Source of the DNA: Phoronis australis
Lineage: Eukaryota > Animalia > Phoronida
DNA: 64,000 bases
Assembly (NCBI GenBank): GCA_002633005.1
Contig: NMRA01000465.1
Coordinates: 284,472 to 348,471, forward strand
Direction: 5' to 3'
The notes under the pieces are model-generated. The model was not told the origin of the DNA. It did no database searches and saw nothing but the letters and a program-made list of their open reading frames with translations. Positions 4,211 to 50,939 of this stretch are shown here, piece by piece. A program made the position numbers and the translations under genes. Every line of letters starts with the position of its first letter. Within the stretch, counting starts at the first letter, position 1.

Positions 4211-4229
4211 AAGAGAAAACATAGTGGCC

Positions 4230-6837: not shown

Positions 6838-7083
6838 CTCGTTGTCTTCCCCTTAATGAAAAAGAATGTTTTGAGCGTTTTCGAAGAGGCGACTGTAAGA
6901 AACAATCCATATATATGAACTACCACTGCCGCCGGACCTGTCATCAACATATGTGTCCACTTGGTGTTTGCGAAAATAAACACAGCGATTGTGAGTTCTG
7001 GGGAAAGCAAGGAGAATGCCATGTCAATCCTAGCTACATGTGGGACGTATGTGCTAAGGCGTGTAAAAAGTATCTTTGTCAAG
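6838..7083 (+). CDS. Gene 1 exon with two ShK domains
   Basis: ttttag|CT...AAG|gtaagt, 246 nt. RCLPLNEKECFERFRRGDCKKQSIYMNYHCRRTCHQHMCPLGVCENKHSDCEFWGKQGECHVNPSYMWDVCAKACKKYLCQ; typical ShKT motif C-x-x-W-x-x-x-G-E-C-x-x-N-P-x-Y-M-x-x-x-C-x-K-x-C. Confidence 0.93.
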
Positions 7084-8535
7084 GTAAGTAAGTAGCTGCG
7101 GAAACAGATGGTCGTTTTCTGGAAAAGATTCTATTATTTTCTCCACATTTTGAACCAAAAAACGACATGGACTTGCAACTTTATTAAAAACAACAAACCT
7201 GTATGGGTACATGTAGGTGGAGTGCCATATTTATTTGAAATATCCACAAGCAACATTTTTCATTTGGATAACAATGGCATTACTGCCCGAAAAGGGGTGG
7301 TCGTTTGCCCACAATGCAAGCTTAGTAACCAATCATGTTATAATGGACAGCGGAATGATCCCTTTTGCAGTGAAGTTAGTGGCACGTTTCACCTTCAGTA
7401 TCCACTTCAAAGCGCAAGACAAAAATAATATCACGCCTGTTGATGTGTATGCTTAATAATGTTACGTTTTTAATGGCAAACCAACACCCAATCTGGAAAG
7501 AAGATCATTGGTTTTGTAACTAATGCAAGCGCACTAAATGTTTTTACGAGAAAACTAAATCACTTGATGCTTAATAGGGTTTCGCACAATTTTCCAAAAA
7601 GCCACAATTCAGTCATTGCTTTCCGGCATCGTCTAATAAAAAAGTGAATAAGTCACCTGAGTACTACCGAAACGGGAGGAACTCAAAATTTGTGAACATG
7701 TTTAATTACACAGAAAATCAGTGAATCTGAATATGTGACATAAAACCTTTAGAGTACAGGATTGACGTCGCTTATTGAAATGATGCCAATTGCTTAATAG
7801 ACGTTGTTTTAGAACGGAAACTTGCTTATTTTGGGATTGTTGGTGAATACGTGGAAGGACTTTGTGCGCAATCGGTTTCATCAAAACCGAAAATGCACTC
7901 AAGTTCCTGACTGCATTGACCTCTTTATTTGGAATATCACGTGAGTTGACTAACCTGATAGATGTCGCATTAGAACTGTGCACTGACTTCGAATTAACAA
8001 CAATGCAGTATACGCACGTTTGAGATTACAAATGTTGACATAAACTTAGAAGTAAAAGAGAATTATTTTGATGAGGGAATCAATCCTCGCCTTGTTGGGA
8101 GGACCACCCGTGACTGCTAAGTTGTTCGGCCTCATTTGTACGACCAAACATGGGTCACAATAGATTGAGAAAGTCCAGTCTCTGGTATGTTACTAGTCAA
8201 TCCACAGAGCCACCTTTCGTGGCACTGGTTGACAATGCTGCTGCGACATGTTGCAATCCCTCAGTAACACAGTTTCCAGTAACTCATTTTCGTGAAGAAT
8301 GAAGCCATAGTAGTAATCAGGTGTATCATCCCATTTTCCTTTTTGAATTCTGATAGCGTGATTGACAGCTGCAGATCTATTGACAGGATATCGGGTTAAT
8401 GGAGACAAACTGGGCTTTTATCTAAACTTAAAAACCACGTGGCTATATAATAACCTATTGTGTTTTGTTGTATTTTGTTGCTTCAGTTGCCTTTGAAGTT
8501 TGATCAGCCGCTGAAGCATTTTTGTTTTCCATCAG

Positions 8536-8685
8536 CTGAGTCCGAATGGCCAAAAACAGAAATTTGCCAGAACAAATTAAGTGTGAAGAGGTGCGAAGAA
8601 CTTGTTTCTTATGGAAATTGTATAACCGAAGCGATATCCATGGCCAACGATTGCTTCCGGTCTTGTACCAGGTGCGCCAGAGACG
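8536..8685 (+). CDS. Gene 1 exon with one ShK domain
   Basis: catcag|CT...GACG|gtacgg, 150 nt. ESEWPKTEICQNKLSVKRCEELVSYGNCITEAISMANDCFRSCTRCARD. Confidence 0.9.
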
Positions 8686-9492
8686 GTACGGAGTAGTTTT
8701 TCACGTCATTTGTTTTTGACCATGGTCATTTATATCTAGTGTACCTCAAACGTTCCATAGTTCACTGGGCTACAACTTCAACAATTTTGAACTCTCGTTT
8801 CTGAAACTTCGTATCAATGAAACTTGTTGTAACCTTACGCGTTTGTGAATGCAGGTCTTTCTTATTACGATTTGAAGCGACACCAAATTGAATACTGCTA
8901 GTTGAAATTAAATATCAGAAAGGCTGTTGATCATCAATTTAATCAGTCACTTTAAAGTATTACCGTTGCTCGTGGTCTTTCTTACGTCCCTGATTGCTCA
9001 TTTTCCACTGTTGCTGAACAGTCTAGTTGGTACAAGCATGTATTCAGGTAGACAGCCAGCTAATTTCTTTGGAGCTCTCGTTAGGAGTTGTTCAGTACGG
9101 CCAGGTTTAGCTCAAAGCTCGATGCTGGTTACCCGTACAAAATTTCACTGGCTCATTCATTACTTTGATAGTAAACAACACAAATGTAGTACACTATGTT
9201 AGACTGAGTCAATGAGAGAAATAAGTTGTGATCAGGAGATGCACTAATTAATTTTCAATGACTACTGAACCTATTTGGACAAGCACTTGGCTAACCTCGT
9301 TAATATTGGTGAGTCACGCATTTTACCTCATGCGACAACCGATCTAATCCAGTGGATAATTTTGAGTTTTATGCAACCCGTCTCATGAATATGTTCTGGG
9401 CAACAGTTTTGGATGGCGTAGCATTAGCCAGTAGCAGGCCATTAAAGTTAGTTCTGTCTGAACTGAACTTAGACCCGGGCGTTACTTTCTAG

Positions 9493-9747
9493 ACGCTGAT
9501 TGTGTTGACGGCTCGTACTTTTGTGACACCACCGCCCACTGCATAAACCGAGACCGATGGATACGGTTATGTAGAAAGTCATGTGGCCTGTGTAGTGAAG
9601 AGGGCTCCATGCTTGTTTTACCCTGCGAAAACAGAGCTGGCAACCAGGCCTGCGTTAAGTGGGCTAAAGATGGCGAATGTACCTCGAACACTGTGTGGAT
9701 GACTCACAACTGCAGGGAGGCTTGTGCACAGTGTGAAACGGAAACAT
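9493..9747 (+). CDS. Gene 1 exon with two ShK domains (absent from ORF track)
   Basis: ttctag|AC...ACAT|gtaagt, 255 nt. ADCVDGSYFCDTTAHCINRDRWIRLCRKSCGLCSEEGSMLVLPCENRAGNQACVKWAKDGECTSNTVWMTHNCREACAQCETET. Confidence 0.93.
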
Positions 9748-10340
9748 GTAAGTCAAACATAAGTTGGTGAATTGTGGAATTGGTGGAATATAAACACGTG
9801 AGCCAAACACCAATTTCTTGGTGAGTCGTGGAACTCTGTGAAACTAAATCATATAAGCCAAACACAAATCTATAGATGAATTGAGGAATATGTGAAACAG
9901 TAAGACATTAGTCTAACTGCAGTCGGCAGATCAACTCCGGAATGTGTGAAACGGAAATGTGCATGTGAACCACTAATTGGTAAATGAAGTGTTGAGTCAA
10001 ATAACAATCGGTAGACGAGTTCTGAAATATTTGAAACAGTAACATATCAAATGCAAATTTGTCGATGAATTGAAAAAGACGTGCAACGGAAAGCTAAGTC
10101 AAACACCCGTTCATAGGTGAATTAATATGTGAAGTGGAAACATAAAAGACAATCACTAGTTAGAAGATGCATTGAGAAATGTTTGAAAACAGAGTCATAT
10201 AATGTGAAACACCATTTGGAAGTTGAGCAGTGCAATGAGTGAACGTGAGTCAAATACCACTAGGTAGACGACTTGTTAAATGTGTGAGACTTAAACGGGT
10301 AAGTTAATCATCATCTGGTATAGGGAATGAGGAATCTGAG
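9732..10340 (+). repeat. Degenerate minisatellite (unit about 50-55 bp, about 11 copies) beginning inside an exon
   Basis: Recurring TGTGAAAC-x-GAAACAT-x-TAAGTCAAACA...ATGAATTG-x-GGAAT units. Confidence 0.7.
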
Positions 10341-11650
10341 AGTAATATTTTTTGCTCTCAGATATTTTTGTTAGATAACCAAGTAAGTGATTACGTAACA
10401 AAACAAGTCCTTACAGACATGTATCACCGGTTGTACTTAGTGTATCTAGAACAGAATAAGCCACATTCAAACTTTTCACACATGCGCACACACGAAACCT
10501 GCTTACATTGTAACAATATTTTTCCATATGACACAAATATTTTCTTGCTTTTTCTCCTTTTTCGATCCATCTACAACCAGCTCTTAACATTGCTCCTTTA
10601 ATATATAGCGTATATTTTCTAATTCGCGGGTTAGTTTCAGTAACTCTTCCTCGGCTTCCTGAGAAAAATTATGTGGCAAAATAAAGTTTAAAGTTCGGTT
10701 TTGCTTCTTTTTATTTCCTGAAAAGTGAATTGTCATTGTTCTTATATTATTCAGCACTACTTCAAAAAGAAGTTTATCACCAATTGAAAACTGAGAACAA
10801 TCTTTAAATTCAGTGTGTTCGGTAAGATTTACCTTATACTCATTAACAGTATTTGCAATGACTTATTTTACTTTAGTAAGATACATCTTGTCAGACAAGA
10901 GTTGTTAAGTTCCCAAAATCCAGGTCCGTTTTTAAAACTGTAACATTTCAAAGTTGCTACAATAGCTGAGTGGTAAGTTCTATATCCAGGAAGAATAGTT
11001 AGTTTTTCCAGAAACGCCTAAAGTTCCTCGCTAACTATGATTAGTCCAACCTAGCCCACTTACGTAATTTCTTTTAAAACGTGTTTAATTTTTTCTTTCA
11101 GGATGCCTCACACTCCAACGGTCAACCAAATTTAACCCGGCTTTCAACTCGCAAACTTTTTATTAGGTAAAGGACTGTTGTTGCACTTATGGTTACAACA
11201 GTCTAAATTATAATCCTGGGCAACGTTCCAATCCCCACAAAGAATCACAAACTCTGATGCAAATTCATCTACTTGACTTCTGAGACGTTGGAAAAAGAGG
11301 CGCCATCTTCATTAGAATCATAGATGTTAAAATAGATATGTTGAATTTTTACTCGACTATCAAATCTATAGCTAAAAAATTCCCGGACCAGTCATGTTTG
11401 ATATAAGAAGCATTGTACTCAATGTTGTTAGCAAAAAATATACCGGTAGTACAGTAACTCCTCTAGAATTACTCGACCCAGGGCAGCTGTAACATCCAAA
11501 CCCCCATTGGCTTTTAACAGTGTCTCTCATTTGTGGTGAAAAGTGGGTATCCCGCAAACAATAGGTGCTACAATTTTTATTTTTTAAGTAATCAAAAACA
11601 TCTTGGAGTAAAAAAGTCTTGGAGTAATATTAGTCATTAAAGAATGTGCG
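10340..11650 (-). mobile_element. Degenerate L1/Tx1-type LINE, endonuclease region
   Basis: Minus-strand remnants CLRDTHFS...QWG...SNSRGV, ILCGDWN and GPGFWELNNS, with stops and frameshifts. Confidence 0.72.
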
Positions 11651-12949
11651 AAACGGGGAAATACCGCATTTGCCAATTGTTCGACCCAAGGTCATGATAG
11701 AATGTGCTCCACTTTTGATATTCTTTGTTTCGCAGTTATGTAGTATCTGAATAAAGTGGCAGACCCAGCTGGTACAGGAGACACGTCTTCTATTGAAGAC
11801 CCGACGAGTATAAAACTCGGGGTATGAAATTCTCTTGCATCTATTAACAATTGTCTTCGATTAGAAACCCAGCTTCTGTTCGAAGCTTTAAGGTCTAAGC
11901 CCATGGATTCACTCACTTTCCAGGGATGACTTAAAGACGTTCCCGAAATCACGCCCATGGCTTATATTAGAAAATAAGGCAAGATCTATTAGGACACAAG
12001 GCAAGTCACATTTCTTGTGTTCTTCGCCAATCAATATTGACCACAATCAACACTTGAGTTTAATACATATTGACTGTCTAAAACCATACTATAACCAATG
12101 AAGGATTAGTAATGTTTCGCTGGCGGACCTGAGATCAAACATTGGGGGCTAAGCCAAAGTTTTTGAAGTGACAAGACAGCGCAAACTTCTATATATTATA
12201 TGTTGGAGTCGTTTTCTTTTTGCCACGCCCAGTTTTGGAGTGACCGGAACCCGGTTGCATGAAACAATCCTGGATGGTTCTAAACTACGTCCCTTAAAAT
12301 TTCAGCGCTTTTGTAAACATCGTTTTCTCACTAGTGTTAAATCTCCCCATCATTTTTGTTTTGTTGTGAGCTCCTCTATTGCTTGTGACATTTTCTAATA
12401 ATTCAAATTAGAGTTTAGAGTTACTGGTTGTCAAAGCTTAAACTTGAAGTAGCAATGAAGATAGATTTGCAGGAATTGAATGAAGAACAATTAGTGTGTA
12501 CTCAAAATCCCAAAATGTACGGAACATAGTCAAGTTTTTGTTAGGACTATATCAAGCATCTGGGGACTGGGACTCCAGGACCCCAAATTCCACCAATGAG
12601 TTCTAACATGGTATTCGTCAAATCAATGTGTTTCCTGTAAAAATGTTTTAACATTAAAAAATTTACAGTTCCACGGCAAACGTCATCCTGATCCCTTTAA
12701 TAACATTATATTGCTGTCTTTTCTTTTGGATATAGGCAGTTACATCGTTGTTGGGGGAGTATTGGCGATTGCGTGCCCCTATAAATAGTTACTCATTTCA
12801 AAATACAAAGAATAACGTTGGCCGAACCACATATAAGCACAGTGAGTTATCTTGAAGTGAGTATATTTTTATGGGGTATATTATCGCTTGTGTACGACCG
12901 CGGCGTCCACAGGTGGGTATCTGCTAATATGCTCATCAAACATCCGCAA

Positions 12950-13550
12950 ACGACAAGGATCGTTTTCACACTTCCTTTACCGGAAAACGACAAATTCGTT
13001 GACTGGACTGTTGAGGGCGTTAGGTTTGAAAAGGTGCTTGAATTTTACTTTTCTTGTTTTGTCACGAAAAAGACATCCCACTACTCCATAAAGTTCTCGA
13101 GTCTGAGTAAGTCTTGGAAGGACTTGAGTAAAGTTTGGTTGTTTGCCATTTTTAAGCGCCCACATATACGCGCGGGTACCCTTATACATTCTTGTCATCT
13201 CTGTACGTCCGGCCTGCGTCCTCTTCTACGTGTATATTTTCTAAACGACTTGCCGAATCTCCTGTGAATTTACCAGATACTTGCATGTTTCTGTCAATGA
13301 GGCTGGCAACAGATAATTACTATTTCTAGACTGAACCGACTCCTGGTGCGTACAATTGTAAAAAGTGTATTTTTTTACTTTTGTCTCTGTATCGGCCCAA
13401 TTCCTTGACGGATTTCCAAGGATTTCGGTAGACGAATTTCTATTCAGGTGACCACAGCACCGACATTCCGAAATTCCTGTGAATTTGACGATGTCCACCT
13501 CCCTATCCCTCAAACTGCTTTGTTTCGTTGATAAACAAATGTGGTTCTAT
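12950..13550 (-). mobile_element. Possible LINE ORF1 remnant
   Basis: KFTGISE...NWADTETKVKK and YMWALKNGK resemble LINE ORF1 motifs; lies upstream of, and co-oriented with, the endonuclease remnant. Confidence 0.3.
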
Positions 13551-14574
13551 GGAGAAGATAACGACAGCTGCAACAACTCTGGTCGCTTCCAGTAATACGG
13601 CTTTTTGTATCCGCAGCTGTATCTTTTTAACAATTTTGAAATTTGGCAGGTGTATTCCTATAAATCGTAGTCTGGATCGATTTCAATATCACCGAGCCAT
13701 AAATTGGCCATTTTCTTACTTGGCGGAATTCTTCCGCCAAGTATGTTGGTCTGACAGAAAGTTTTTTTTGTTTGTTTGCTCTCTACAGGTCGCAATTTTG
13801 GTCCGATTTTCACGAAATTTGCACACAACATGTAGATCTGGAAGTACTAGAACGCTATTGTTTTTGGTTATGATCAGATACAAAATGGCGGACGTGGCGG
13901 CCATTTTGTATCCGATTTCACAGTCAAATACTCGTTTTTTGTACCTTCGCAGTTCCTTGGTGGACTTTTAAAAATTTTGGCAAATATCTCTCTTTTAAGG
14001 AGATACCTATGCGTTTTCATTTTAGACAAATTCCACGTAATCTGCGCCACTTAGCAGCCATTTTATTTATTTGCGAGTGTTGTTTTTGGTGTCTGTCCCG
14101 CCGTCACCAATCATCAATTTAATTACTCTCGAGTCTCGTTTTGTTGTCCTCCTCGCCATATGTCAAATCGCTTATGAACATTTGCAGATGGACTCCTGCT
14201 GAAAAGACCATTTCTAACGTTAATTTTTGAACCGCTCCGACTGCTGTGGCGCATACGGCTTGATGTATTTGCACGCACCTAACTATGCTAATGTTTAGCA
14301 GAAACTAAACGACAATGCTATTTTAACATAATCTACGCTAACAAAGTGCATTTGTATTTGTTGTCAACTTGTAAAAGAGAAAACAAAAAATCTCCAAACA
14401 GTTGACCTTTGCACTAATGACGTACCTCGCGGGCTCACATTGTGCAGTCTCATTCTCCAACACCACGTCACGATTCTTACTTGACACTGTTCAGTGATTT
14501 GCGGAACAACATTTTCGCTTAAAAACTCGTTCTTAATAACATTTGTCATATTCTTAAGTTTATTTGAATAACAA

Positions 14575-15710
14575 AATTGAGAGTGTGAAGAGAGAATTCT
14601 GATGTATTAATTAAAACTTATGAGTGAAAATGATGTATATATTTTTGACAAGTCTTCAAAAATTTCATGAATAAAAAGACTACTTACATTTGAAACAAAA
14701 CGGGTGAAATTATTTGAACATAAATCGGCAATTGCAAAGTCAAATATTATAAATTTTGGAAATGATCATATTAGAAATCATACCGAAGTAGTCAATCCTT
14801 TTTGGAACGAAGTTCTAAGTAGGATAACTGGTCCTTTTTCGTAAGTAAACAGATGCGAATGATTTACTCTCAACACGTTTATGACACAAGGATGAAATAA
14901 TAAGACAGAAAATCTATCACAATTGCAGTTTAAAATTAATACCTTTTAATATCCGTATTTTTTAAACTGTCCGTCAATATATAAAATGTCATAATTATGA
15001 AATTGTTCGCAGAACAAAAGTTTGCCTATTGCCTAAAAAGGATTCAAAAGAAAAAGGTTACAACTTTGAAAGTGATGAGTGGAAAAATGTATTTTCATTG
15101 TATTTTAAATCTATTTTCGATTTCAAGTTATGTACACTGCAGTTTAAACTATTACACAGAATACTAGCAACGAACTCTTTTCTTAAAAAATAACTTTATG
15201 GACTCTGATGTTTGTACTTTCTACCAGTCAAAAATTGAAACAATATATCACACCCTTTTCAAATACAATAATATAAAATATTGATAGAAGAATAACGCAG
15301 TTAGGTGTTGTGGGTAAAAAGTACGAAGTTGATTGACAAAAACAGTGATTTTGGCTGACCCATAAGTAACTAAAATAAAGTTTTAAACTCGATTATTTTG
15401 AAATTAGAATATTTTATTTACGTATCTAAATGTAAAAAATAATTCACAGCATCTGTCAATTACGTAAGATATTAGAAGGAGAATTTAATATTCAAAGAAG
15501 AACTTTATTAAATAATGATGAATGAATACCGGGTAACCAGCAGAACCATAACTTTTCCTGACAACATCGTAGCTAAAGTGGGCGGGTATGTTGAGAGGAG
15601 CGGGTGTGTGCATGCGTCCGTGTGGTGAGAGTGAGATGGGCTTACGTTTTTTGTCTCTCATGTCTTTGTATTTATGTTCTTTATACCAATAGGGAAATTT
15701 AAAAAAAGTC
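14575..15710 (+). mobile_element. Degenerate L1/Tx1-type LINE 3' region
   Basis: LQFKLLHRILATNSFLKK...DSDVCTF...IETIYH (zf-RVT-like); GT-rich 3' UTR and A-rich end. Confidence 0.7.
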
Positions 15711-16300
15711 CAACCTACTTCATATTAACATCGTCGCTATATGTTGTGCGTCAAAGTAATTAGGTCAGGCAATCTCGGAGACAAAGAATTAGCGTGCAAG
15801 TTTCACTTTCATGAAGGTGACAAGGGATGACGACTTGTTTCGGAAGGATCCGACATTTTTACTTTAGCTTTTGTATATTAACAGTTCCTTGACGGTTTTC
15901 ATGAAATTCAGCTAAGGGATTATACTTGGGAGGCTAATATGCTTTGCCATTTTTGGACGGGTTCGACGTATTCTGTGCCACATAGTGACCATCGTATGAT
16001 ACTAATGAACAATAGAGTCATACAGTTTGCGGTGCAGTCGTGGGCGTGTTTCTACTGTAGTTACCAGAGTATTAATAGACGCAATGAGAAAGTTTTCCGC
16101 ATTCATCGGTGCATTGTTGCAGCGACGATTACGTATGAGTGTAATTTTTGCGAGAAGATTGTAAAGCGATTTCACAGGATGATGAGTGTAAAATGTATAA
16201 GAATATCATCCGATCTGCGCCTTTACTTTTGGAATCAAACCGTGTTCCCCACATTGGATGTTGTGTAAAAGTCAAAATATCTCATTCTCCATTGTTGCAG

Positions 16301-16459
16301 GTTATGATCGTTTTCAAGACAGAAACTGCAAGAAAATTAAAGACATGGGGGAGTGCGAAAACGTCAGTCCATTCCGCCCGTTTATTGCCAAGAATTATTG
16401 CGCCAAAACTTGCAATCTCTGCGACAAAGAAATTGATCCACCTTTTGGAGCGCCACAAG
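16301..16459 (+). CDS. Gene 1 exon with one ShK domain (first Cys split across the upstream intron)
   Basis: ttgcag|GT...CAAG|gtacaa, 159 nt. (C)YDRFQDRNCKKIKDMGECENVSPFRPFIAKNYCAKTCNLCDKEIDPPFGAPQ. Confidence 0.9.
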
Positions 16460-16934
16460 GTACAAGTGTGATTTAAATAATTTAAGTGTGGAGTGCTGTT
16501 AAGATCATGCAAAAATCCGTACATAGAGGATAACACTTTGTCACGGATCATACTATGCGTTTTAGGTTACTTTCAAATGGTTATTATTACTAAGATGCAG
16601 TTGAAACAAATTTGATGCCGTTGATTAGCTTAAGTAGGTACCTCCAGTTTTTAATGGGAATCAGATCAGTGTAGTTGCGACCAGCGGTGTTGTAAGTCGT
16701 TCTTTTTGAAGCTACTGGATAATTAAATGTTTTGTATTTTGGATAAAATCATTTATTGCCTTAGAAACATGAAAAACGCATTTCTTGAAATTTAGCCTTG
16801 AATTTCACACTTTGGGGTCGGAGTATGCTAGGGTCAAAGAGCAACAATGAAGAAAACTTATCGTGCTTTGCATGTGTGAATCTCAGCTGATGTCATGTTT
16901 GCACATTAGAACTTCAATATGTTTTTGACCTCTA

Positions 16935-17232
16935 TTGTAAAACTTAAATTCGGTTTCTTCAGTGACAGCACTGCTTTCAAAGAGGCCGTCAACAACAAAA
17001 TATGAAACAGTAATATAGCACAATAAAATATTAAAAAACAATAATTAAATACATGTAACGAAGAAATTGTTAAAATATGTTGAGAATTTAGATACTAAAT
17101 GAATGATGAAAATTTGACTAAAAGAGATGAAATAAATAAAGAGATGATACTAAATAATGAGAGTATGTACAGTAATGAAAAATAACATAATTCAGACAGA
17201 TTAAGTAAGAATGGGTCAGTAAATTACAGCAG

Positions 17233-17317
<85 letters not shown>

Positions 17318-18870
17318 AGCAGCAAAAGATCTGTTGCTGGTCTTGGTTTTAATATTTTAAAAGAATCGTTACCAAAAACGAATGCACGTTGTGAGTATAG
17401 AGCTTGATTGCTACTGAATTTACGGCTAGGTATGGTGGAGCAAGGTCATTGACACATCTGTACATGCAGCAGGCAGGTATATGTATTTATATGTTTTGCT
17501 TCATAAATTCAAACTTGGACTTCAAGTCGTCGACCCGTGTGTCCCCGGGTCTAGTAACCAGCCCTGGTTGCTCTATTTGTGATTAGTGTGTCGTTGTTAT
17601 GTCCGCAAACCGGTAAACAATAAACAATATGATGCTGAATAATAGGATGGTAAAGTGTCTTAAGAGTGCTGACATTAAGAAATTAACATAGACATTTAAT
17701 TACGTCGATTTTCTTTAATAGTTTCTTTGCTATGTGATGTTTGTGCATATTAATTTTAAGGTTTGCAACTAAAACAATCCCAATTACTTAAACTTGTCGA
17801 CACTCTGCATAGGGAAACTGTTTACACTAAAGAGACAGATTCTTTTGTTTTCGTTTCTGGTGGGTTCCCTACAGTATACCCTAGTTTTCCTAACGTTAAG
17901 AGTGAGTTTATTTTGAAGCAGCCAAGCATGCCGGATAAGGGCTAGCTCATCGTTGAGAGAAGTTTCAAGTTATGTTACTGATCCAGTTGTGGACATAATT
18001 GCAGTGCCATCAGCATATAAAACTGGTACACTGTTGTGGAGGATAGTAAGTAGATGGTTAACAAAAATAGTGAATAACAGAGGGATCAGAATGGAGCCCT
18101 GAGGTACGCCCGTGATAACGGTTGAGAAGTCCGTAAGAATATTACCGTATTTGGTAGCCTGTTTGCTGTCGTATTAGCTTTTAAACCAAAAGAGTTCGTT
18201 TTTGTTAGCTCCACAGGACTCGAGTTTCTTTAATAGGGTACCATGGTCCACGTTGTCTTAAGGTCAACAAAAATCTGGAAGCCTTTACTGATCCATATTC
18301 ATTTGTTAAAGATAAAATCAGTCGCTTGAATGATTGTAGTCAGAGTAGAATGTTGGGGGCGGAAAGCAGTCTGTACTGTCGATAGAATGGAAATTTCCTC
18401 CAGGAACTGGTGAAGCTGCTTTTGGACACACTTTTCAAGAAATTTGAACACTGCAGAACGGACCGATATTGGTCTATAATTATCGCAACTAGACTTGTCA
18501 CCGTCTTTAAAAACAGGAGTAACTACCGCCGTCTTCCATTTATTAGGAACTGTGGCCGTTTTTCAACTTTAACTTAAAAGTTTATGATATTGGTAGGGGG
18601 CTCAATTCCAGTTGAACTATGGGACGTGATTATTAGTTACACCGATGAAGCTTTGCTTGAAAATGGACCAAGCGATATCGGGGTCATCAGCTGTGGTAAG
18701 GGCGCCCCAATCAATTGCATGTAGCACTTGTTAATTCATGGCGGAAACTTAGGAAGACAAGTCTTATACGCTGTGAATACAAGATTATGATCACTAATCC
18801 CAATGGGTATACTATCAAACTTAAACATTTTTGTCAATATCCAACTCCATGTCCACAAACATACGCGTTT
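16935..18870 (-). mobile_element. Degenerate CR1/L2-like LINE
   Basis: Minus-strand motifs ISDHNLV (APE), KWKTAVVTPVFKDGDKSSCDNYRPIS, GVPQGSIL, LYADG and CVNDLAPPYL; 3' end GGCCTCTTTGAAAGCAG...CTGAAG. Confidence 0.8.
17227..17323 (+). repeat. (CAG)n microsatellite, about 32 imperfect units
   Basis: Read directly from the sequence; intronic, inside the CR1-like fragment. Confidence 0.95.
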
Positions 18871-19797: not shown

Positions 19798-19941
19798 TTC
19801 CAGGAATCTGTATTGATGTACTCACGCCACAATATGGCAAAACGACAACCAAGTTGTGCCAACTGTATGCAGTGCATGGGTTTTGCAACAAAAACAAGGA
19901 AATACAAAGAGAGTGCTACAATACGTGTTACTGTGAAACAT
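19798..19941 (+). CDS. Gene 1 exon with one ShK-like domain
   Basis: gtttag|TT...ACAT|gtgagt, 144 nt; an alternative in-frame acceptor gives a start at 19804. PGICIDVLTPQYGKTTTKLCQLYAVHGFCNKNKEIQRECYNTCYCET. Confidence 0.85.
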
Positions 19942-31402: not shown

Positions 31403-32762
31403 AAACTACCACTACGAGGCGCCACAGTAGTCATTCACCAACATCAAACATCACCTTCACACTGAGAACATAAACGCTAATTTTTAAAAGCATCCCTAGA
31501 ATGATTTGGTTGATAGAGGGGTGGACGCCAAAAACAAGATTCGAAAACGGCGAAAAATGGCCACCAGGTGGCACAAAGTGCCTCAATTGCATCCAAAAAC
31601 AGGAGGATAGCGTCACCACACCAATTGATGCCCATATTTAAAATTTTATGAAAGTCTGTTGAGGACCATTGAACATACAGAGTTAAACGTAAAAAAATAA
31701 AATTGCCTCTAGGGAGCACACCAGAAGTCAGATCCATCCAAAAGTCGTCGTCGTTCGTTGTCAACAACATATAAATACACTTACTAAATTAAGTGAAGAT
31801 CCTGCAAACGGTTTAAGAGATATAGTCATGAGCGCAAAAATATAGAACTGCCACTAGGATGCGACACAGTAGTGGAAGTCGTCAGAAAATCATCGTCAGC
31901 CGTCCAATTCATAGTAAAAAGATATATGCCAATTTTCACAATCATCCTGAAAGCAGTTTGGTTGGCGCCAAAAAAAAGACTCGAAAACAGTAGAAATGGC
32001 CACTAGGTGGCGCAAAATAGGTCGAATCCATCAGAAAATGGAGAGATACCTCATTATAAGAAGCCTGTATGCCTTTGAAGATACAGAGGTAAACGGAAAA
32101 ACGTAAAAATATAATTGCCAGTAGGTGGGACACCAGTAGTCAGACCTTCCGAAAGTCGTTGTAGTCCGTTGTTAACACAATATGAATACACTTTCTAAAT
32201 TTAGTAAAGATCCTGCTAACGGTTTAGGAGATACAGGCATAAGTGCAAAAAACTGCCTCTAATAGGCGCCACAGTAGTCGAATTCGTCGGAAAATCATCA
32301 CCAGCCGTCAACTTTATACTTAGTAAGAACGTACATCCCAATTTTCACAATCATTCTTTGAGCGGTTTGGTTGAAAGAGGGGTGGGCGCAAAAAAGAAAC
32401 TCGAAAACAGTAAAAATGGCCACTAGGTGGCGCAAACTACGTCGCATCCATCCGAAAACGAGAGGATAGCGTCATCTCATTAACAGGTGCCTACCTACTG
32501 AATTTTATGAAAATCCGTTAAGGACTTTTGAAGGTACAGAAGTAATCGAAAAAAAAATTCCATTAGGGGGCACACTGGTTGTCGGATCCATACGAAAGTT
32601 CGCTCATGCCGTTCCATCTACGGAACAAACACATGTACAAAATTTCATGAACATACATCAAGGGGTTTTGGAGATAGAGTAGCGGACGCCGGACTCCGTA
32701 CGTACGGACGGAGATGACGGTATAGTGTGTCCACATATAAATAATATGTGGGCGCATAACAA
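31403..32762 (-). mobile_element. Second HINE copy, inverted and 3'-truncated
   Basis: Reverse complement of most of 21917-23240; subTIR ATGCGCCCAC with adjacent inverted repeat CCACATAT/ATATGTGG; reduced CCGT tract. Confidence 0.8.
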
Positions 32763-34165: not shown

Positions 34166-34240
34166 TACTTCCACCTGAAAGACAACTAATTGGTGGTAGA
34201 CGGACTACAGAACATGGCGGATTGCCTACACAAGGTGAAA
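34166..34240 (+). CDS. Gene 1 linker exon
   Basis: catttcag|TA...GAAA|gtaagt, 75 nt, phase 1-1, (V)LPPERQLIGGRRTTEHGGLPTQGE. Confidence 0.65.
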
Positions 34241-37296: not shown

Positions 37297-37857
37297 NNNN
37301 NNNNNNNNNNNNNNNNNNNNNNNNNNNNNNNNNNNNNNNNNNNNNNNNNNNNNNNNNNNNNNNNNNNNNNNNNNNNNNNNNNNNNNNNNNNNNNNNNNNN
37401 NNNNNNNNNNNNNNNNNNNNNNNNNNNNNNNNNNNNNNNNNNNNNNNNNNNNNNNNNNNNNNNNNNNNNNNNNNNNNNNNNNNNNNNNNNNNNNNNNNNN
37501 NNNNNNNNNNNNNNNNNNNNNNNNNNNNNNNNNNNNNNNNNNNNNNNNNNNNNNNNNNNNNNNNNNNNNNNNNNNNNNNNNNNNNNNNNNNNNNNNNNNN
37601 NNNNNNNNNNNNNNNNNNNNNNNNNNNNNNNNNNNNNNNNNNNNNNNNNNNNNNNNNNNNNNNNNNNNNNNNNNNNNNNNNNNNNNNNNNNNNNNNNNNN
37701 NNNNNNNNNNNNNNNNNNNNNNNNNNNNNNNNNNNNNNNNNNNNNNNNNNNNNNNNNNNNNNNNNNNNNNNNNNNNNNNNNNNNNNNNNNNNNNNNNNNN
37801 NNNNNNNNNNNNNNNNNNNNNNNNNNNNNNNNNNNNNNNNNNNNNNNNNNNNNNNNN
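37297..37857. other. Assembly gap (N run)
   Basis: Run of n characters. Confidence 1.
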
Positions 37858-38351
37858 CTGCTTAGAGGCTCTGGACTGGAGAAAACAGCACAGGGCGAAT
37901 CACTACTGGTTCCAGGAATTGCACGCTCTGGGGTACGTTCGGAGGCACGGGTGACAGTAGATGAAGTGCCTCCACTGGCTCCAGTCACTGTACTGGCCAC
38001 AGCTCGCGAGGCTTCTTGCTTCAAATACGCACTTCTCGGGGGTGGCGACGGGGCACTGTCGGGAATCAACACAGACGGAATGGCATCCTTCTTTAGACGT
38101 TGTTTTGCAGGGCCCATCATCAGTTCAGCGTACAAATCCCTTTCGTAATCGGACGGCAGATAGTGCTTGCCACACACACGGTAATTCTCCACTGCTTTGT
38201 ACGTTGCGTGGACGGGTAACGCTGCGTTCTTCACACGAACGAGCCAAGTACGGCGAAGTGTGTCATCCATCGGAAAGCGATGTAAAGGTACTCCCAAAAC
38301 GCGCGTGAGCCGATAATTAGTACATCCTGGTATGCAGCAACAGTGTGGCAT
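37858..38351 (-). CDS. THAP zinc-finger protein (probable Kolobok transposase N-terminus), running into the gap
   Basis: MPHCCCIPGC...LHRFP...RTW...RVCGKH...LKKDAIPS matches THAP C2CH plus the AVPTIF-like box. Confidence 0.85.
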
Positions 38352-38616
38352 GTTGACTGACTAGTAAATGAAAGCAAACGACGACGGAACTCAACACAAC
38401 CGAGGTAGAACAATGACTGACTCGGCAGCTCTCACAGTCAGACTATATTAAAAGAAATTGGCACGAAATGCTTGCCTCCTAAAACGTCACTTCCGGAGTA
38501 GCGGACGAGTAACTAATAAAATTACCAAAAGCTGTAATTAAGTGGAAAATATGTCTAGGATAACCAACCAACCTTATTTTAGCTCAAAATGACATGGAAA
38601 AAGGTTGCCTTCACCT
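37858..38616 (-). mobile_element. Kolobok-type DNA transposon inserted in the LINE RNase H region (other end in the gap)
   Basis: TTAA|AGGTGAAGGCAACC terminus at 38616 interrupts the RNase H frame; contains a THAP ORF. Confidence 0.75.
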
Positions 38617-41600
38617 TTAACACAATGAGAGTTGACCCTTAGTTTCTTTAGGGCTTTTATTGCTGCCTGGCTATCTCAAAAGATGGTAATTGGCCGATTG
38701 CCAAGATCAGTGTTATATTGTTGTGCCAGTTGAGCAGCTGTATTAATTGCAGTGATCTCAGCCTGAAACACCGTGGCAAGATTGCCCAACGATACCCAGT
38801 TTTCTGCATCTGCAACAGGAAGGCTTGGAAAGTAGACCCCAGCACCTGTCTGGCCATTTTCCAGTTTAGAGTCGTCCGTATAACAAACCACCTCATTCTT
38901 GTGTTCTGCGGTAGGCCATCCATCGCCAATTTCCGTGAAGAAATTGTTAGTATGAAAAAAGCTGTGACCTGGACATCACTAGGCATGTTCCATAGTTGCC
39001 CAGTCTTGGCCATTAGCTTATTACAAACATTCCTGTGGCTTCTGTGTGCAACGGAGTCAGGGATGTTAGTTTTCACCCACTGACCATAATATTTGAGACG
39101 AAGTGCAGCACATGCAGCTTCACCCTCAAGGTATATGTTCAGTGGTGGTAGACCGATTAGCATTTCTAGGGCTGCAGAAGGCGTTCCTGGAAAAGCAGAG
39201 GTTATGCACAGACAAGCTAGACGTTGCAGCTGTCTAAGTTTGTTGATAATTGTAACCTGTTTTAATGCCGTTACCCATATCGACGAAGCATAGGACATTA
39301 TAGGTCGGATAACAGCAGTATAAATCCAGAACATATTCTTGGGAGACATTCCCCAAGTTTTACCCACCACACGACTGCATCTCACCAATGCAGATTTGGC
39401 TTTTGAGAGTCTGTAATATGCGGGGTCCAGGAAAGACGATGGTGTAAAATGACACCTAAGTAAGTCGCCTTGTCTACAAGATCAAGATGTTTACCATTCA
39501 GCGTTCAAGGCCTCATTGACCATTTAAGCTTCCAAGTGAACATAATCACCTTTGTTTTGCTACCACTAATTTCTAAGCCGACTGACTTAGCCCATGTTGC
39601 TGTTGTATTCAGTGCTCTTTGAGCAAGATAGCGACATGTGTCAGGATCGATGCTTCACTCACTGAGAACAATATCATCTGCATAGGCTTGAACATACAAG
39701 CTTGGACCCATGTCAGTAGATAATTGTCGAAGCAAACCATCCATAACCATGTTAAAGAGGTTGGGTGAGGCAGCGCCACCCTGAGGTGTTCCTCTGGTGA
39801 TGCGAACCGCCACTCTCATATTGTCTAAACAAGCAGTCACAGATTGACTTCCTAGCATGTTAAAGATCCACCTGGTAAGACACCTATTCACTTTAAAGAG
39901 GTTCAGTGCAATTCGAATCGCATCATGCTTAATATTGCTGAAAGCACCAACAAGATCAATTAAGGCACAGAGGGCAAATTGTTTATTAAAAACAGCCCTT
40001 TCCAGTCTAGCAACCAGATGATGTAGAGCGGTCTCCGTAGAGAAGCCAGGCCTACAAGCATACTGATTGTTCTGACGTTTGTTCTGTATTCCTTGTTTAT
40101 CAAGATGTCACAGAATGAGCCTTCCCAGTCCTTTGAGAAGAAAGGATGTTAAGGTTATAGGCCTAAATGATTCAGCCAAAAGGTATGAGTTCTTCCCTGG
40201 TTTAGGAATGAAGACCAACCTAGCTTCAGTCCAAATCTTAGGGATATAACCTAGTCAAAGACTGGCTTTGTAAGTTGCTGTAAGTATATGGAATAGTGGT
40301 ATCCCAGCTTCTTGCAACATTATAGGATATATCATGTCTAGTCCTGGGGTCTTCCATGGTTTAAAAGACTTTAGAGCTAACTCCACGAGATGTGGTGTGG
40401 CTATGTTTTCAACATCAGCATAAGCTAGTGGTTCACACTCCTCGGAGTCTGTCACTTTTGAATATTGGTTCGACAGGTTTACACTATCAGGATAGTGCTT
40501 ATCCATCATGACTTCGAGTGTTTCCTCAGCGGAGCGTGTGTATGAGCCATCCTCTTTTTGAATGACCTCGAGTGATTCTTCTTAAGCAATTGGATCAGCC
40601 TTGCAGATGCAGAGAGGCTGTTAGTTTGCTGACAGAAATTCCTCCAGGAATTGCACTTTGCTTTGCGTGTGGCAGACTTAAACATACGATAGGCAAGATG
40701 ATATGCATCCCAGCACTCGTCAGTGTGAGCCCGAATTGCTGCTCTGTGAGCTTTACGTGCCTTACCCCGAAGTGCTGCCAGTTCTTTGGTCCACCAAATC
40801 TGTTGTTTTGGTTTCCCAGTGACCTTAATACAGCGTTTGGGGCAGGAAACATCTAGTGACTTGGTCAGGGCATTGTTTATGTCATCTGCCAATTTGTTAA
40901 CATCAGAACGAGTCCTGATATTTGTTATTCCTAGAGTAGAAAGGAGTTTGGAAACCTTTGAACGATAGAGTTCCCAGTTCACCTTATTGGTGTACCTATA
41001 CTCAGTAAATAGTGGAACAACGAAAGTCGCCACTTCAAACCTGATGTATCTGTGGTCAGATAAAGAAGGTGCAGAATCCACTCTCCAATTAGTTACCACA
41101 TCAACAGCAGGCAAATTAACCAGAGTAAGGTCTAGAACCTCCTGCCGGTTTCTGACAACAAATGTGGACTCATGGCCCTTGTTGCATATTAAAAGTTGTG
41201 AGCTGACAATAAACTCTAGAAATGCCTCACCTCTTGTGTTGGTGTTAGTGCTGTGCCACAGCTCGTGATGTGAATTGGCATCACAACAGATAACCAAAGG
41301 GATATTCTTGGCTCTGCAGTGATTGGTGATTTGTTGCAGTTTAGCTGGGGGTGGGTTCTCGGCGGAGTCCCCTGGCATATAGGCTGAGACCCACCATACT
41401 GTGCATATTAGACCATTTGGTCTTAATGTATCACAGTAGACTGCCACAGTGTCCCTGTCACAAAACTCAGGAAGGATTCTTGAGGTTATGTCCTTGGATA
41501 CCTGAATCGCATCCCTGGGCTTGATGTTGTTACCCAGTGAAGCAATATAAGATTTGGCATTCCTAGGAGTGTTCATCATCGCGCTTCCCTGACAGCACGG

Positions 41601-41928
41601 CTCTTGTACAAAGGCCATGAATAGGGTATTGCGCTCAAGCGTCTGCTGCAGAAGCACTGATGGGTTGTTGGCCCGGTGTAGATTTATCTGCCAGATTTTA
41701 ACCTCATGATTCATTTCATCATGTTAAGAATATACCAGTGACTTTCTATCCAGACTCCACATCACTCGTGAGTGGGGAAGGAGCCAGAGAAGATTCGTCA
41801 TTGGATGGCACAGGTTCAGAAGCCTCAGCAACATTCTCTACCTCAGTCGTTTCATCACCCAGGTCCATTTCTGCTGACTTTGTGGTGGGCACACAGTCAG
41901 CTTCCATGTCCGAGGTTGATATCCCTTC

Positions 41929-43011
41929 TTAGGCCTGGACAGAAGCTTTGGCCCACTTACTGCTTTTGTCCCTAGCTCTAAAAAGCACACGCCCAGCAAA
42001 GCCACACCAGGGACGAAAATCCATCCCCCGGAGAACCTGCCAAGCGGACTCTTCAAAGGCTAGGACAATGGTGAATCCCTTAGAGAGATATTTTGACGTT
42101 GGTTCGATGGCAGTCATTGACACCATATGAACCTTTGTCATATCCAGGTCATCGTTGCACTCCTCATCCTTATTAGAGGCAACTTCCTCTGACACATGAA
42201 AGAAGGCCTTGAACACAGGAGGTAGATCGCCTGGACCCATCACGTGGTACCCTGACCTGTGAGAGTCAGAACCATCAGGAGTAAGTTCCTTACACTCAAG
42301 TTTGACCCAGTCACAGGCAATCGCCAGTTTGCCCTTTTCAAGTCTCACTGACTTAATATGAAGCGGTACACGGGGTCTCTGAGGTTTGACAAATGCCATC
42401 TGTAGTCGGCGCTTCAGACGCTTAGCCTCGTCCTCATTTAGTGGTGGCTCACCAGCCTTTGCAGCCACAAAGACACTAAGACCTTTCTTAGCCACGCTAG
42501 CATGAGGTAGTTTATCCACTTTAGCCACTTTGGTGGGTGGTTTTGAGGATGTCCCAGGAGTCGAGCTGTCAGACTTAGGGCTCTTAACACCCTGCTGAAC
42601 ATCGATTTCTAGGTTTTCAAGCTTCTTCTGTGCCGCCTGGTTATCCCGCTTTGTCTTCCGCCTAGCACCAGCAGAGAGACGGTGGGAGCTGCCATCAGGC
42701 CCAGTTGAAGTCTTTCCACCACCATTCGATCCGTGAGGAGTGTCCGGGGCAGGTTTGGGGTTCGCGTCAGCAGCCAACCTAGCCGCTTTCACAAGCTTGG
42801 TAATCTCACTTTCCACTCTTATAGAAGAGTCCAGTGATTTCCCAGAGCAAGCGTCCACAGTAGGGGGTGCTTCCACTTGCCTTATAGAATCTCCTAGGGA
42901 GGAGTCTTTGAGGCGGACGTCCATGGCCGCAAAGACCACATTCGACTGCCCTGTGCGCTGGTCACTTGAACCCTGACCAGGGTGGGTTATTGGTTTTCGC
43001 TGTGGATCCAT
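41929..43011 (-). CDS. LINE ORF1 (gag-like, 360 aa, resembles DUF4780-type ORF1)
   Basis: Open 360-aa frame upstream of ORF2; basic low-complexity N-half; GKLAIACD segment. Confidence 0.75.
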   Translation of the reverse strand: MDPQRKPITHPGQGSSDQRTGQSNVVFAAMDVRLKDSSLGDSIRQVEAPPTVDACSGKSLDSSIRVESEITKLVKAARLAADANPKPAPDTPHGSNGGGKTSTGPDGSSHRLSAGARRKTKRDNQAAQKKLENLEIDVQQGVKSPKSDSSTPGTSSKPPTKVAKVDKLPHASVAKKGLSVFVAAKAGEPPLNEDEAKRLKRRLQMAFVKPQRPRVPLHIKSVRLEKGKLAIACDWVKLECKELTPDGSDSHRSGYHVMGPGDLPPVFKAFFHVSEEVASNKDEECNDDLDMTKVHMVSMTAIEPTSKYLSKGFTIVLAFEESAWQVLRGMDFRPWCGFAGRVLFRARDKSSKWAKASVQA

Positions 43012-43638
43012 ATAGCAAGTATAGGTTATGATTCAGGTCTGCATCCCATTCACCCTATCCATAGGGTGCCAACAAAGCCCACCCAAAGGCTTTCCTGCAT
43101 CCGCAAACCTATAGGATCTGACACTGGTCTCAACAGCTCCCTCCCCTGGTTCCTCCAAGCGAGCATATGACCCCCAGCGAAAGGGCTTCTGCTGCAAATG
43201 GACTACCCAGGTTCAGCATGTCTACCTCCAAGTCCCAGAACCTCGCAACCTCCCAGGGCTAACCGTGCTCTAGTGCAACAGGCGCTACTCCGTGCACCCC
43301 GGTTTGCCCAAGATTACTTGATAGGCAAAGTTCTGTGTTGTTTACCACCAGCCGCAACTGGCTTAAGACTCAAGAACCAGGGTATTAGTTCTCAAGGGTT
43401 CCCGTGTCACCTGACCGGAGACAAGGGGTATCAACCGGACCCGAAGAGGTCAAAGTCAAGATACTCCTGACCAGCCGCCCCATAGGGGGATGATTGGGTT
43501 AGAGAGGCCTCCCACTCTAGAGCCACTGATCAATCACCCGAGAAAAGAGAATGCTTCCAACAAGGTTTTCGGCATCTCATATCGTTCGAAACAACAGTGG
43601 CTGCTAAAGACAGAAAACCCCCTTCCGCAACCCGATCC

Positions 43639-46273: not shown

Positions 46274-46384
46274 CTTGTTGCGACCATGATGAAGATTATT
46301 GTGCCATTTACGCTGTTGTTACTTGCTTAACTAACGAGCTTACAAGAAGGCAGTGTCCTCTTTCTTGTAGACTGTGCAAGCAAA
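46274..46384 (+). CDS. Gene 1 exon with one ShK domain
   Basis: tttgcag|CT...CAAA|gtaagt, 111 nt. CCDHDEDYCAIYAVVTCLTNELTRRQCPLSCRLCKQ. Confidence 0.88.
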
Positions 46385-48845: not shown

Positions 48846-48849
48846 TACT

Positions 48850-49666
48850 AAAAAGGTATATGGACCAATTTTACCTTTTCCTCTAAAAACTATTATGTTG
48901 ACGAAAAGGGATGTCGGAATTCTTATCACATTTTGTGCAAAAATGATGTAACATTATCGGCACAAAAGAAATTTGAAATATTGGGATTTTCGCTATCAGA
49001 GATGTGGAACTTTTATTACAAACTTTCCACATGAATGTACGAATGACACAAAATTACTTTTCTTTCAGTTCCTCTTGCTGCATAGAATTCTACCTACTAA
49101 TTATTTTAAATAAGATTAGATATGCGGTATCAAATCATTGTACTTTTTGTAAATACTTTCCTAGACGTTAGAGCATTTATTTTTGAATGTGTGTGCATGT
49201 TAACTCTTTGTGGATGGGGTACGTCTCTGGTTAATGACTGCAATGCAAGTGAATTTTGAAAAAAATACAGCAAAACCACCATTATATTTGGTCTTCAAAA
49301 TGAACAGAATAGAGTTTTGAATTGGTTTCTTTTACAAACTTAAATTTTTATTTTTAAAATGAAGTTTGCTATTGTCAAACCTAACTCAACATGTCTTAAT
49401 TGTTTGAGGGTATGCTTTAATGTAGAATTCAGTGCTTTTTTCAACACACGGAAATTTAATGATACAAACAAATGAGAGGATTGGAAATGTGTTTTTGAAA
49501 TATGAAGGGAGCCATAGAATTGACCAGATGCCAGAACATAACTTCAATTCGTATTTTTAAAGGCATATATATGTAACTTGAAAGTAACAATCAAATGCTT
49601 TCTGGCTTTTTGCACAGTTCTATACTACGTCGTTGTGTTTGTTGTACCTGTTTTGTAATAAAAAGT
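48850..49666 (+). mobile_element. 3' fragment of the same L1/Tx1 family as 24390-25220, in opposite orientation
   Basis: Long visible match to the reverse complement of about 24440-25220; ends AATAAAAAG. Confidence 0.85.
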
Positions 49667-50084
49667 TAGTATACAACGCCAAATTTCACTGGGTTCGATC
49701 ATTTGGGTTACCTAAAACATTGAAAAGGCAGTTTTACTGCTCTAAAAACATAAACAATTTATCGATGAAAATTCCGACGCACGATGATCAGGCGGCTATT
49801 TTTGGGCCTCGCTAAAGATTCAATATGGGTCTTCATAATTAGGTCAAGCTACATAGCTTCCCCAATGCTGTGATCAAAAAAGAGGAAATGTTTCTATTAC
49901 TATTTATAGTCCAAGAAGACACGAAAATACACGAAGAAAATTAATAAGTTTATCGAAGCTAAAACGACACATTGCTTCACAACTATTCAGCGAATTTTAT
50001 AATCCCGGAATTAACATTTTTAAGTTTCATACAAACTTTTTTGTACTTTTTAATGGTTCAGAGAGACACCCCTTGGGTGACCCT

Positions 50085-50325
50085 TGGTGGTCTTAATTCA
50101 TTTCACATCGTACAAATTCTCCCGTAATCAATTCATTTTGAGCAGTCCTTCGATCAAATGCCCCAATCGGCAAAATGCGATTTTTACCACTGCGCGCGCC
50201 GAGAGTTATGACGTCGCATTGTAAAATTGGCCAGTTGCCGATTTGGGCAACTGAACAACGGACTGCTCGGAAAAAGTTTGAATACGGGATTATTTATTCG
50301 AGTTGGAGAGAATTAAAGACACCGA
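50085..50325. repeat. Degenerate palindromic MITE-like repeat
   Basis: GAGCAGTCC...CCAATCGGCAA / TTGCCGATTTGG...GGACTGCTC inverted arms. Confidence 0.5.
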
Positions 50326-50787
50326 CAACCATCTTAGATGTAACTCTATGTGCAACAGGTAGGTCTACTTAAAGCAACGAAACTTTGATGTTTTAATCAG
50401 TGGGAGCTAGGAATAATTTACCGAAAAGCTTACGTCGTATGGAGTGCCTATGGAAGCTTTACTATCTCGAAAGCCTATTGAGACGGTAGTCATCATCTAC
50501 CGGCGCTTGAGCTGAAGTGAGTGTCAAAGAGGGAATATCTGGTAATTACATGGGGTGTCAAATGTCACTTTTAATGTGTGTCATGTATCAATGAATTGGT
50601 AGTTCATGCGTTTCGGGGGTTCAATAAACAGTTAGCGTGGCTATGCCAGTGTAAGAGTATGTCAGTAACACTCCTATGGGTTGAAAAATCCCTTGCTCGA
50701 TTGGCGTGATGACAAACCAAGCGTCAAAACTTTACTAGTAACCTTTTGCAACAGTCTCGCTTTCCAACACACCTTGTTGCATTACAG

Positions 50788-50939
50788 CGTGCAAAGATCG
50801 ACTGTTCAACTGCGATTTATTCATTGATCAATGCCAAAATGAGATCCGCAAGGAAGCGATGGAGTATTATTGTGCTGCCACGTGTAATTTCTGCAAACCG
50901 TGTGGCTCTGGTTCCCGAAAAATGACTGTACGGAAGTGA
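50788..50939 (+). CDS. Gene 1 terminal coding exon with one ShK domain and stop codon
   Basis: attacag|CG...AAG TGA. CKDRLFNCDLFIDQCQNEIRKEAMEYYCAATCNFCKPCGSGSRKMTVRK*. Confidence 0.88.

Follow-up and report, generated by a model that had tools for sequence, protein, structure and literature searches.

A ten-domain ShK array encoded by phase-1 exons in Phoronis australis and its probable relation to astacin-type proteases

Exon organization of the locus

The plus strand of Phoronis australis contig NMRA01000465.1 carries, within the 64,000-nt stretch of DNA analysed here (the window), eight exons encoding ten divergent ShK domains, and a separate astacin gene begins 3 kb downstream of this array. 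The features are listed below; those marked predicted, and the astacin gene, are read from sequence.

6838–7083, +: exon 1; ShK domains 1 and 2, both ending C-x3-C-x4-C; phase-1 acceptor; spliced to exon 2 in RNA
8536–8685, +: exon 2; ShK domain 3; clean one-domain exon; weak-looking donor; RNA joints to exons 1 and 3
9493–9747, +: exon 3; ShK domains 4 and 5; first Cys codon of domain 6 starts at its final base; RNA joint to exon 4
16301–16459, +: exon 4; ShK domain 6 (split first Cys codon) and linker; RNA joint from exon 3
19804–19941, +: exon 5, predicted; ShK domain 7, ending C-x3-C-x-C; alternative acceptor at 19798; first Cys codon of domain 8 starts at its final base
27038–27160, +: exon 6, predicted; ShK domain 8 (split first Cys codon); KTKK at its end; weak-looking donor
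31108–31134, +: doubtful 27-nt linker micro-exon; phase 1-1; from a splice-site scan only
34166–34240, +: predicted cysteine-free linker exon with GGRR; from a splice-site scan only
37297–37857, no strand: assembly gap of 561 N inside a predicted 12-kb intron; could hide exons
46274–46384, +: exon 9, predicted; ShK domain 9
50788–50939, +: exon 10, predicted last coding exon; ShK domain 10, then a TGA stop at 50937–50939
51469 (ATTAAA) and 51788 (AATAAA), +: candidate poly(A) signals, by motif
54032–63344, +: astacin gene, running past the window end
54032–54088, +: its ATG and signal-peptide-like exon, with a hydrophobic leader
55.0–57.7 kb, +: its predicted pro-region exons, with phases not fully reconciled
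59348–59573, 61561–61761 (HExxHxxGxxH, SIMHY) and 62740–62881, +: its catalytic exons
63222–63344, +: its Cys-rich exon, phase 1-1

All eight ShK exons have AG/GT ends in phase 1, each of the nine introns (up to 12 kb long) is phase 1, and internal exon lengths are divisible by three. The original prediction had described an array of ten ShK domains with these properties; the array is real, and phase and length both hold by splice-site inspection. Its count of ten exons and about 480 residues is recovered (1436 nt, about 478 aa) when two cysteine-free linker exons, presumably those counted there, are added to the eight ShK exons, although the 27-nt exon is doubtful. Exons and domains do not correspond one to one: two exons hold two domains each, two are linker only, and the first cysteine codon of domains 6 and 8 is split by an intron. 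The donors of exons 2, 4 and 6 look weak. Since the acceptor of exon 1 is in phase 1, the gene probably begins with an earlier exon. At the other end, the stop codon, followed by a gene with its own ATG and hydrophobic leader, makes the array C-terminal by sequence. The stop in exon 10 and the separate leader exon at 54032 led us to reject a fusion between the array and the downstream astacin.

ShK identity of the ten domains

Six cysteines are present in all ten domains, counting the split codons of two, and seven end with the canonical C-x3-C-x2-C, the last spacing being x4 in two and x1 in one. A Pfam scan, which had been suggested as a check, gave a partial answer: PF01549 passed its cut-off in four of the eight exons, matched weakly below it in two and was absent from two. 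Using a custom ShK profile built from database matches alone, we found all ten domains at the top of 2133 six-frame pieces of the window (9.7–43 bits; next 7.2). Ten shuffles gave best scores of 6.3–10.4, with one match of at least 9.7; the two lowest-scoring domains, that of exon 5 (9.7 bits) and the first of exon 3 (10.8 bits), are therefore not above chance by score alone. The domains are as mutually divergent as had been claimed, with a median non-cysteine identity of 11% (maximum 30%).

Among solved structures, phmmer matched 2mcr (E 5.8e-5), and a profile of the ten domains returned 2k72, 2mcr and BgK as its first structure matches. In the model of exon 1, the only exon modelled (pLDDT 85), domain 2 superposes on 2mcr with an rmsd of 0.9 Å over 32 columns (TM 0.80 by target, E 0.31, Z 3.6), and domain 1 reached Z 2.2 to 7l2g and nothing stronger; these scores are low because the ShK fold is tiny.

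The array domains resemble single ShK-fold peptides (Brugia 2mcr, MMP23 domain 2k72, BgK 1bgk) in sequence and probably in fold, but they sit in a long chain and in none of the ten is the Lys-Tyr pair between Cys3 and Cys4 found at the 2mcr positions; one has Arg-Trp, shifted by one. This absence tells against the toxin-like modules of the original prediction; the pair is neither necessary nor sufficient for ShK-type channel toxins (PMC6409789). With at least six domains on the read-joined exons 1–4, the product also departs from a short single-domain secreted peptide. Basic clusters in the linkers (KTKK, GGRR) had been proposed to allow release of sub-arrays. Release there is unsupported: the 103 linker residues contain four dibasic pairs against 2.05 expected, and the general motif R-X-K/R-R occurs in no linker, its sole match falling inside domain 1.

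RNA support for the array

RNA runs were selected by species label. In two of three raw-read runs spliced reads connect exons 1-2-3-4, pointing to sample-specific expression, with 26 and 24 reads across the exon 1–2 joint and 16+9 and 20+10 across the exon 3–4 joint in the two expressing runs. Three of the nine junctions thus have RNA support, the other six being predicted from sequence. Depth over exons 1–4 is similar, at 26–38 in both expressing runs. Among the joints listed (15 of 50) none skips an exon within exons 1–4, a comparison in which skips of fewer than about 9 reads per run could be hidden. In the contig run X4 depth is near zero over the ShK exons, which weighs neither way. The ten ShK domains in these scattered exons likely belong to one expressed gene. 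In the expressing runs sense-strand coverage of 4–6 continues as far as exon 1, compared with 26–35 on exon 1 itself, and could represent an unspliced leader.

Relation to the neighbouring astacin and to known multi-ShK proteins

The downstream gene resembles ShK-tailed astacins. Best matches of its exon at 59348 and of its Cys-rich exon are astacins with 8–16 ShK domains (P0008, P0016, P0005, P0028), and in a tree the neighbour falls inside a clade with 96/95 support whose nine other members bear 6–16 ShK domains, the references having been gathered by an ShK query and therefore being biased to ShK-tailed astacins. It has a seven-cysteine array (1+6 Cys), as precedes the ShK tails of snail M12-ShK proteins (PMC6409789), and its Cys-rich exon ends in phase 1, the phase of the array's exon 1 acceptor. 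A direct search with its zinc-site exon returned one match among 66 candidates, the astacin-CUB protein P0001, and when that exon was compared by BLAST with the collected proteins P0001 again ranked first. Any tail of the neighbour's own lies beyond the window.

The M12-ShK (ShKT-astacin) proteases of lophotrochozoans and echinoderms are on record with long runs of divergent ShK domains at the C-terminus, some of them non-canonical, joined by short or low-complexity linkers, and the array resembles them, in keeping with the earlier remark that ShK modules occur at the C-terminus of astacins. We compared it with Owenia CAH1783615.1 (16 ShK domains by the custom profile), the oyster cluster of P0008, Liolophura XP_064615809.1, Lineus XP_064636551.1 and XP_064638075.1, Acanthaster XP_022083990.1 and Cumia CreM12-ShK (PMC6409789). 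These relatives share the seven-cysteine array and a similar zinc-site signature with the neighbouring gene. The array itself has no protease part in the window, and its domains are more eroded than in most of these relatives, as the Pfam result indicates. The array has no close orthologue, the best identity being about 50%; its gene was not found in the protein collection searched, and exon 3 gave three candidates among longer proteins, none significant.

Because of this neighbourhood and the base rate, we consider it probable that the ten domains make up the C-terminus of a single secreted zinc protease of the astacin type (M12-ShK), the protease being encoded by exons upstream of the window. 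Among the 150 matches to exon 1 listed, 11 have at least ten ShK domains and seven of these are astacins; 25 have at least eight, ten of them with a strict zinc motif (12 counting Pfam). The protease exons would sit before window position 1: tblastn of 16 relatives gave no protease, Cys-array or extra ShK exon in 1–6837 or 27.3–46 kb. The array gene and the neighbour would then be tandem paralogs, and the array may have grown by duplication of a phase 1-1 exon, which would explain its symmetry without shuffling at the RNA level. Rather than a precursor of free channel toxins, the tail would probably be a string of binding modules that keep the enzyme at its substrate or at an epithelial or mucus surface. 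In the available text of PMC9848320, ShKT astacins are expressed mostly in barrier epithelia or gut. Multi-ShK astacin tails are already on record, as are RefSeq isoforms without whole ShK domains; what is new here is an expressed gene with ten divergent ShK domains and no close match in the protein collections searched, which adds to this family.

A less probable but still plausible reading is a stand-alone secreted multi-ShK protein (a signal peptide and ten domains), or a tail attached to a CAP, VWA, SUEL lectin or hydroxylase domain, with mostly one splice form and acting as a multivalent binder. Thirteen of the 25 listed matches with at least eight ShK domains are without astacin, Pfam finds ShK-only, VWA, SUEL, 2OG-Fe(II), DnaJ, MAM and trypsin architectures among the top 60, and, in the available text of PMC8001218, phase 1 is frequent for signal-peptide introns. 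Position 6798, 40 nt ahead of exon 1, has an in-frame ATG under the weak sense coverage noted above, but the leader from it is of weak hydrophobicity and shares sequence with the pyrimidine tract. A single hydrophobic-leader candidate was found in 1–6900 (at 1823), in repeat-like sequence with reads from both strands. ShK-only proteins such as Cumia multiShKL and the nematode and Nematostella multi-ShK proteins likewise have tandem domains in which the Lys-Tyr pair is mostly absent, but they have 2–4 domains and a known signal peptide, against ten domains and no identified leader here (PMC6409789). Multi-ShKL proteins occur in snail, where ShK-only proteins have 2–4 domains and M12-ShK proteins 3–9; longer arrays may appear in the supplements of the Cumia and astacin sources (PMC6409789). 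The neighbour, moreover, is an astacin of the ShK-tailed clade.

Exon skipping and the combinatorial idea

Under the astacin-tail reading the array would yield mostly a single splice product; a small number of isoforms might drop an entire domain, which is also seen in annotated relatives. In four related astacin-ShK genes RefSeq lists two to three isoforms per gene that differ by exactly one or two ShK domains, and limited skipping is therefore plausible in the array. Clean skips are possible for exons 2 and 9 and for exons 4 and 5 as a block. A bolder proposal, to which we give a slim chance, is a regulated family of products that combines these skips with a protease-free ten-ShK form from the unspliced leader at 6798 and strongly divergent alleles of single domains. 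If true, a marine invertebrate would possess a polymorphic set of ShK modules for recognition or defence, tuned by splicing, and splice-tuned ShK diversity would have a testable example here.

Free combinatorial skipping, giving many different strings of toxin-like modules that are cleaved into sub-arrays at basic linkers, is more doubtful again. Combinatorial cassette-exon repertoires of the Dscam kind would be expected to have one self-contained module per exon, to leave any combination open and intact, and to show skip junctions in RNA. Here exon and domain boundaries disagree in the two two-domain exons, the two domains split at Cys1 and the two linker exons, and over exons 1–4 the reads give joints between consecutive exons and an even depth. 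The uniform intron phase, the weak-looking donors, the cleanly skippable exons and the relatives' isoforms fit such skipping, and rare skips could be hidden beyond the 15 of 50 joints listed. The original claim that any subset of internal exons can be skipped in frame fails, however: in 3 of 45 forward exon pairs the joined split codon reads as a stop, 64 of the 256 subsets are interrupted by a stop, and 104 of the 256 are stop-free with every domain whole. In alternative models (exon 5 acceptor at 19798; no 27-nt exon), whole-domain subsets number 128/256, 64/128 and 80/128 (50–63%), and in the last of these no subset contains a stop. The relatives' two or three isoforms per gene, not dozens, the absent Lys-Tyr pair and the near-chance number of basic pairs also argue against this model. 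The original interpretation thus stands for a multi-ShK array of phase-1 exons and for ShK modules at the C-terminus of astacins, and its combinatorial toxin repertoire is unsupported.

Phase-1 exons need not mean free mixing, as split codons bind neighbouring exons and can create stops. In the available text of PMC8001218, phase 1-1 symmetry is the norm for animal extracellular modules, and the array shares the phase-1 flanking introns of these class 1-1 exon modules; the match is imperfect because two introns interrupt a first Cys codon and two exons encode a pair of domains each. Literature on ShK with splicing, exon shuffling or isoforms, judged by titles and abstract starts, yielded no paper on ShK cassette skipping.

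A split of the array into two genes or fragments, such as exons 1–6 and exons 9–10 parted in the 12-kb interval with its gap and transposons, is scarcely credible. In its favour, the RNA joints examined cover exons 1–4, the open frame continues past the weak exon 6 donor, and the 37–43 kb interval contains the assembly gap and a LINE. Against it, a search of 27–46 kb gave no further coding exon for any known partner domain, strand and phase are constant along the array, and split Cys codons bind exon 3 to exon 4, with read support, and exon 5 to exon 6.

Identification of a ten-domain ShK array

Splice-site reading of 6838–50939 (+ strand) yielded eight exons with ShK domains plus two candidate linkers, together encoding about 478 aa; all introns are in phase 1 and all internal exon lengths are multiples of 3, in agreement with the original prediction. 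A six-frame motif scan of the whole window confined ShK-like cysteine patterns to the + strand, the CAG repeat excepted. The Pfam model PF01549, which had been proposed as a check, recovered the array in part: four of the eight ShK exons scored above the Pfam cut-off, two matched weakly and two had no match. Using a custom ShK profile, built on 400 of 624 ShK-like pieces from database matches and none from the window, we found that the array's ten domains were the top ten among 2133 six-frame pieces (9.7–43 bits; next 7.2). Because best scores in ten shuffles were 6.3–10.4, the case for the two weakest domains draws on their position and splice sites as well as on score. The domains lie far apart in sequence (median between-domain non-Cys identity 11%). 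The predicted structure of exon 1 (pLDDT 85) best matched ShK-fold peptides, with low scores because this fold is tiny.

Nine phase-1 introns are not a chance occurrence, the probability being about 4e-5; this hand calculation takes phase 1 at its frequency in human (32.65%, as quoted from PMC3632108) and is partly circular because both linker exons were selected for phase. A passage in PMC8001218 describes class 1-1 as the usual state for extracellular modules. We conclude that the array is real and belongs to a hidden gene that probably carries all ten ShK domains originally claimed. The window also contains the following features.

Other features of the window
54032–63344, continuing past the window end, + strand: neighbouring astacin gene, intact-looking and separate from the array, with hydrophobic leader, zinc motif, Met-turn and seven-Cys array
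36976–43032, − strand: LINE-like retroelement with endonuclease, reverse transcriptase and upstream ORF; frameshifts
37860–38360, − strand: THAP-domain fragment within the LINE-like stretch, adjoining an assembly gap
17227–17324: intronic (CAG)33 repeat
21975–22992 / 31729–32720: dispersed inverted repeat pair
24450–25222 / 48850–49642: dispersed inverted repeat pair
1347–1927 / 58022–58609: dispersed inverted repeat pair (copies of the three pairs 79–86% alike)

Expression and exon usage

RNA data from three raw-read runs (each sampled to about 18–19%) and from a contig run were mapped on 1–17100, covering exons 1–4. Two runs contained RNA from the + strand, with 26 and 24 reads joining exons 1–2, 14 and 4 joining exons 2–3 (a low count in the second run) and 16+9 and 20+10 joining exons 3–4. 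The third run contained none of these joints on 1–17100, indicating sample-specific expression. Estimated depths of exons 1–4 (26, 38, 28 and 32 in one run; 35, 28, 28 and 38 in the other) fit inclusion of each exon at a near-constant level. Among the joints listed (best 15 of 50, many of the places taken by repeats) none skipped an exon within exons 1–4; skips with fewer than about 9 reads per run could escape such a listing.

The notion that any subset of exons can be mixed freely does not hold. Exons 3 and 5 terminate on the first base of a Cys codon that exons 4 and 6 complete, so splicing from a different donor costs domains 6 and 8 their first cysteine; joined to exon 5 or to the 27-nt exon, that first base creates a stop. 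Stops arise at 3 of 45 forward exon pairs and in 64 of 256 subsets, and every domain is whole in 104 of 256 (128/256, 64/128 or 80/128 under gene models with the alternative exon 5 acceptor and/or lacking the 27-nt exon). Some parts could be skipped cleanly (exon 2, exon 9, exons 4 and 5 as one block, and the linkers), but with free mixing failing, exons 1–4 evenly deep and no skip among the joints listed, the combinatorial idea is overstated.

Upstream of exon 1, 5131–6840 showed sense-strand coverage of 3.7–6.1 in both expressing runs and 0 in the third, compared with about 1 across most of the exon 3–4 intron; this coverage may come from a retained intron or unspliced leader. At the start of domain 6 (16303–16321), 9/25 and 10/30 exon 3–4 junction reads, about one-third, carried a variant of unchanged length with 9 of 19 bases different (counted by eye), which would be an allele that has diverged or a copy from a paralog. 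In one run, exon 2 began with a shorter variant in seven reads (8536–8552).

Probable relationship to astacin proteases

The neighbouring gene's best matches were astacins with 8–16 ShK domains for two exons and an astacin-CUB protein for the zinc-site exon. In a tree of 25 rows, including those 24 of the collected astacins with enough sequence N-terminal to the zinc motif, it fell in a 96/95 clade beside nine astacins with 6–16 ShK domains, the references, mostly retrieved by ShK query, being biased to ShK-tailed astacins. We favour, with some reserve, the array gene being its tandem paralog: the product would be a secreted astacin zymogen whose ten-module tail may anchor the protease or aim it at an epithelial surface, with the later junctions probably also spliced mainly into one form. 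The main rival, a multi-ShK protein standing alone or behind another N-terminal head, appears rather unlikely. No protease exon was found in 1–6837, placing the array's N-terminal part beyond the window or making it absent; among the matches listed (150 of 1192 representatives found with exon 1, E up to 0.001), 12 of 25 proteins with at least eight ShK domains contain an astacin domain (Pfam counted), as do 7 of 11 with at least ten.

The array's architecture is of a known kind. Snail M12-ShK proteins with 3–9 ShK domains C-terminal to the seven-Cys array are reported in PMC6409789, and a mussel astacin with eight in PMC9848320, which also places expression of the ShKT astacin group in epithelia or gut. 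No array domain (0/10) has Lys-Tyr at the 2mcr positions; since this pair is described as neither necessary nor sufficient (in PMC6409789), the domains may still act on channels. Dibasic pairs number 4 in 103 aa of linker (2.05 expected) and 9 in 365 aa of domain (7.3 expected), and the proposed release of sub-arrays at basic linkers is not borne out.

Ten of the exon 1 matches were traced to their sources: an oyster cluster, snails, a chiton, an annelid, a nemertean and echinoderms. Best matches suggest that the window itself probably comes from a marine lophotrochozoan. RefSeq isoform pairs differ by 46 aa in each of two Lineus genes, by 124 aa in Antedon and by 47 aa in Acanthaster, with 6, 6, 12 and 6 cysteines in these segments, respectively; whole-domain ShK skipping is thus already annotated in relatives, with 2–3 listed isoforms per gene. 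Two Lineus astacin-ShK genes (P0024 and P0025), listed on contigs of equal length, are possibly clustered.
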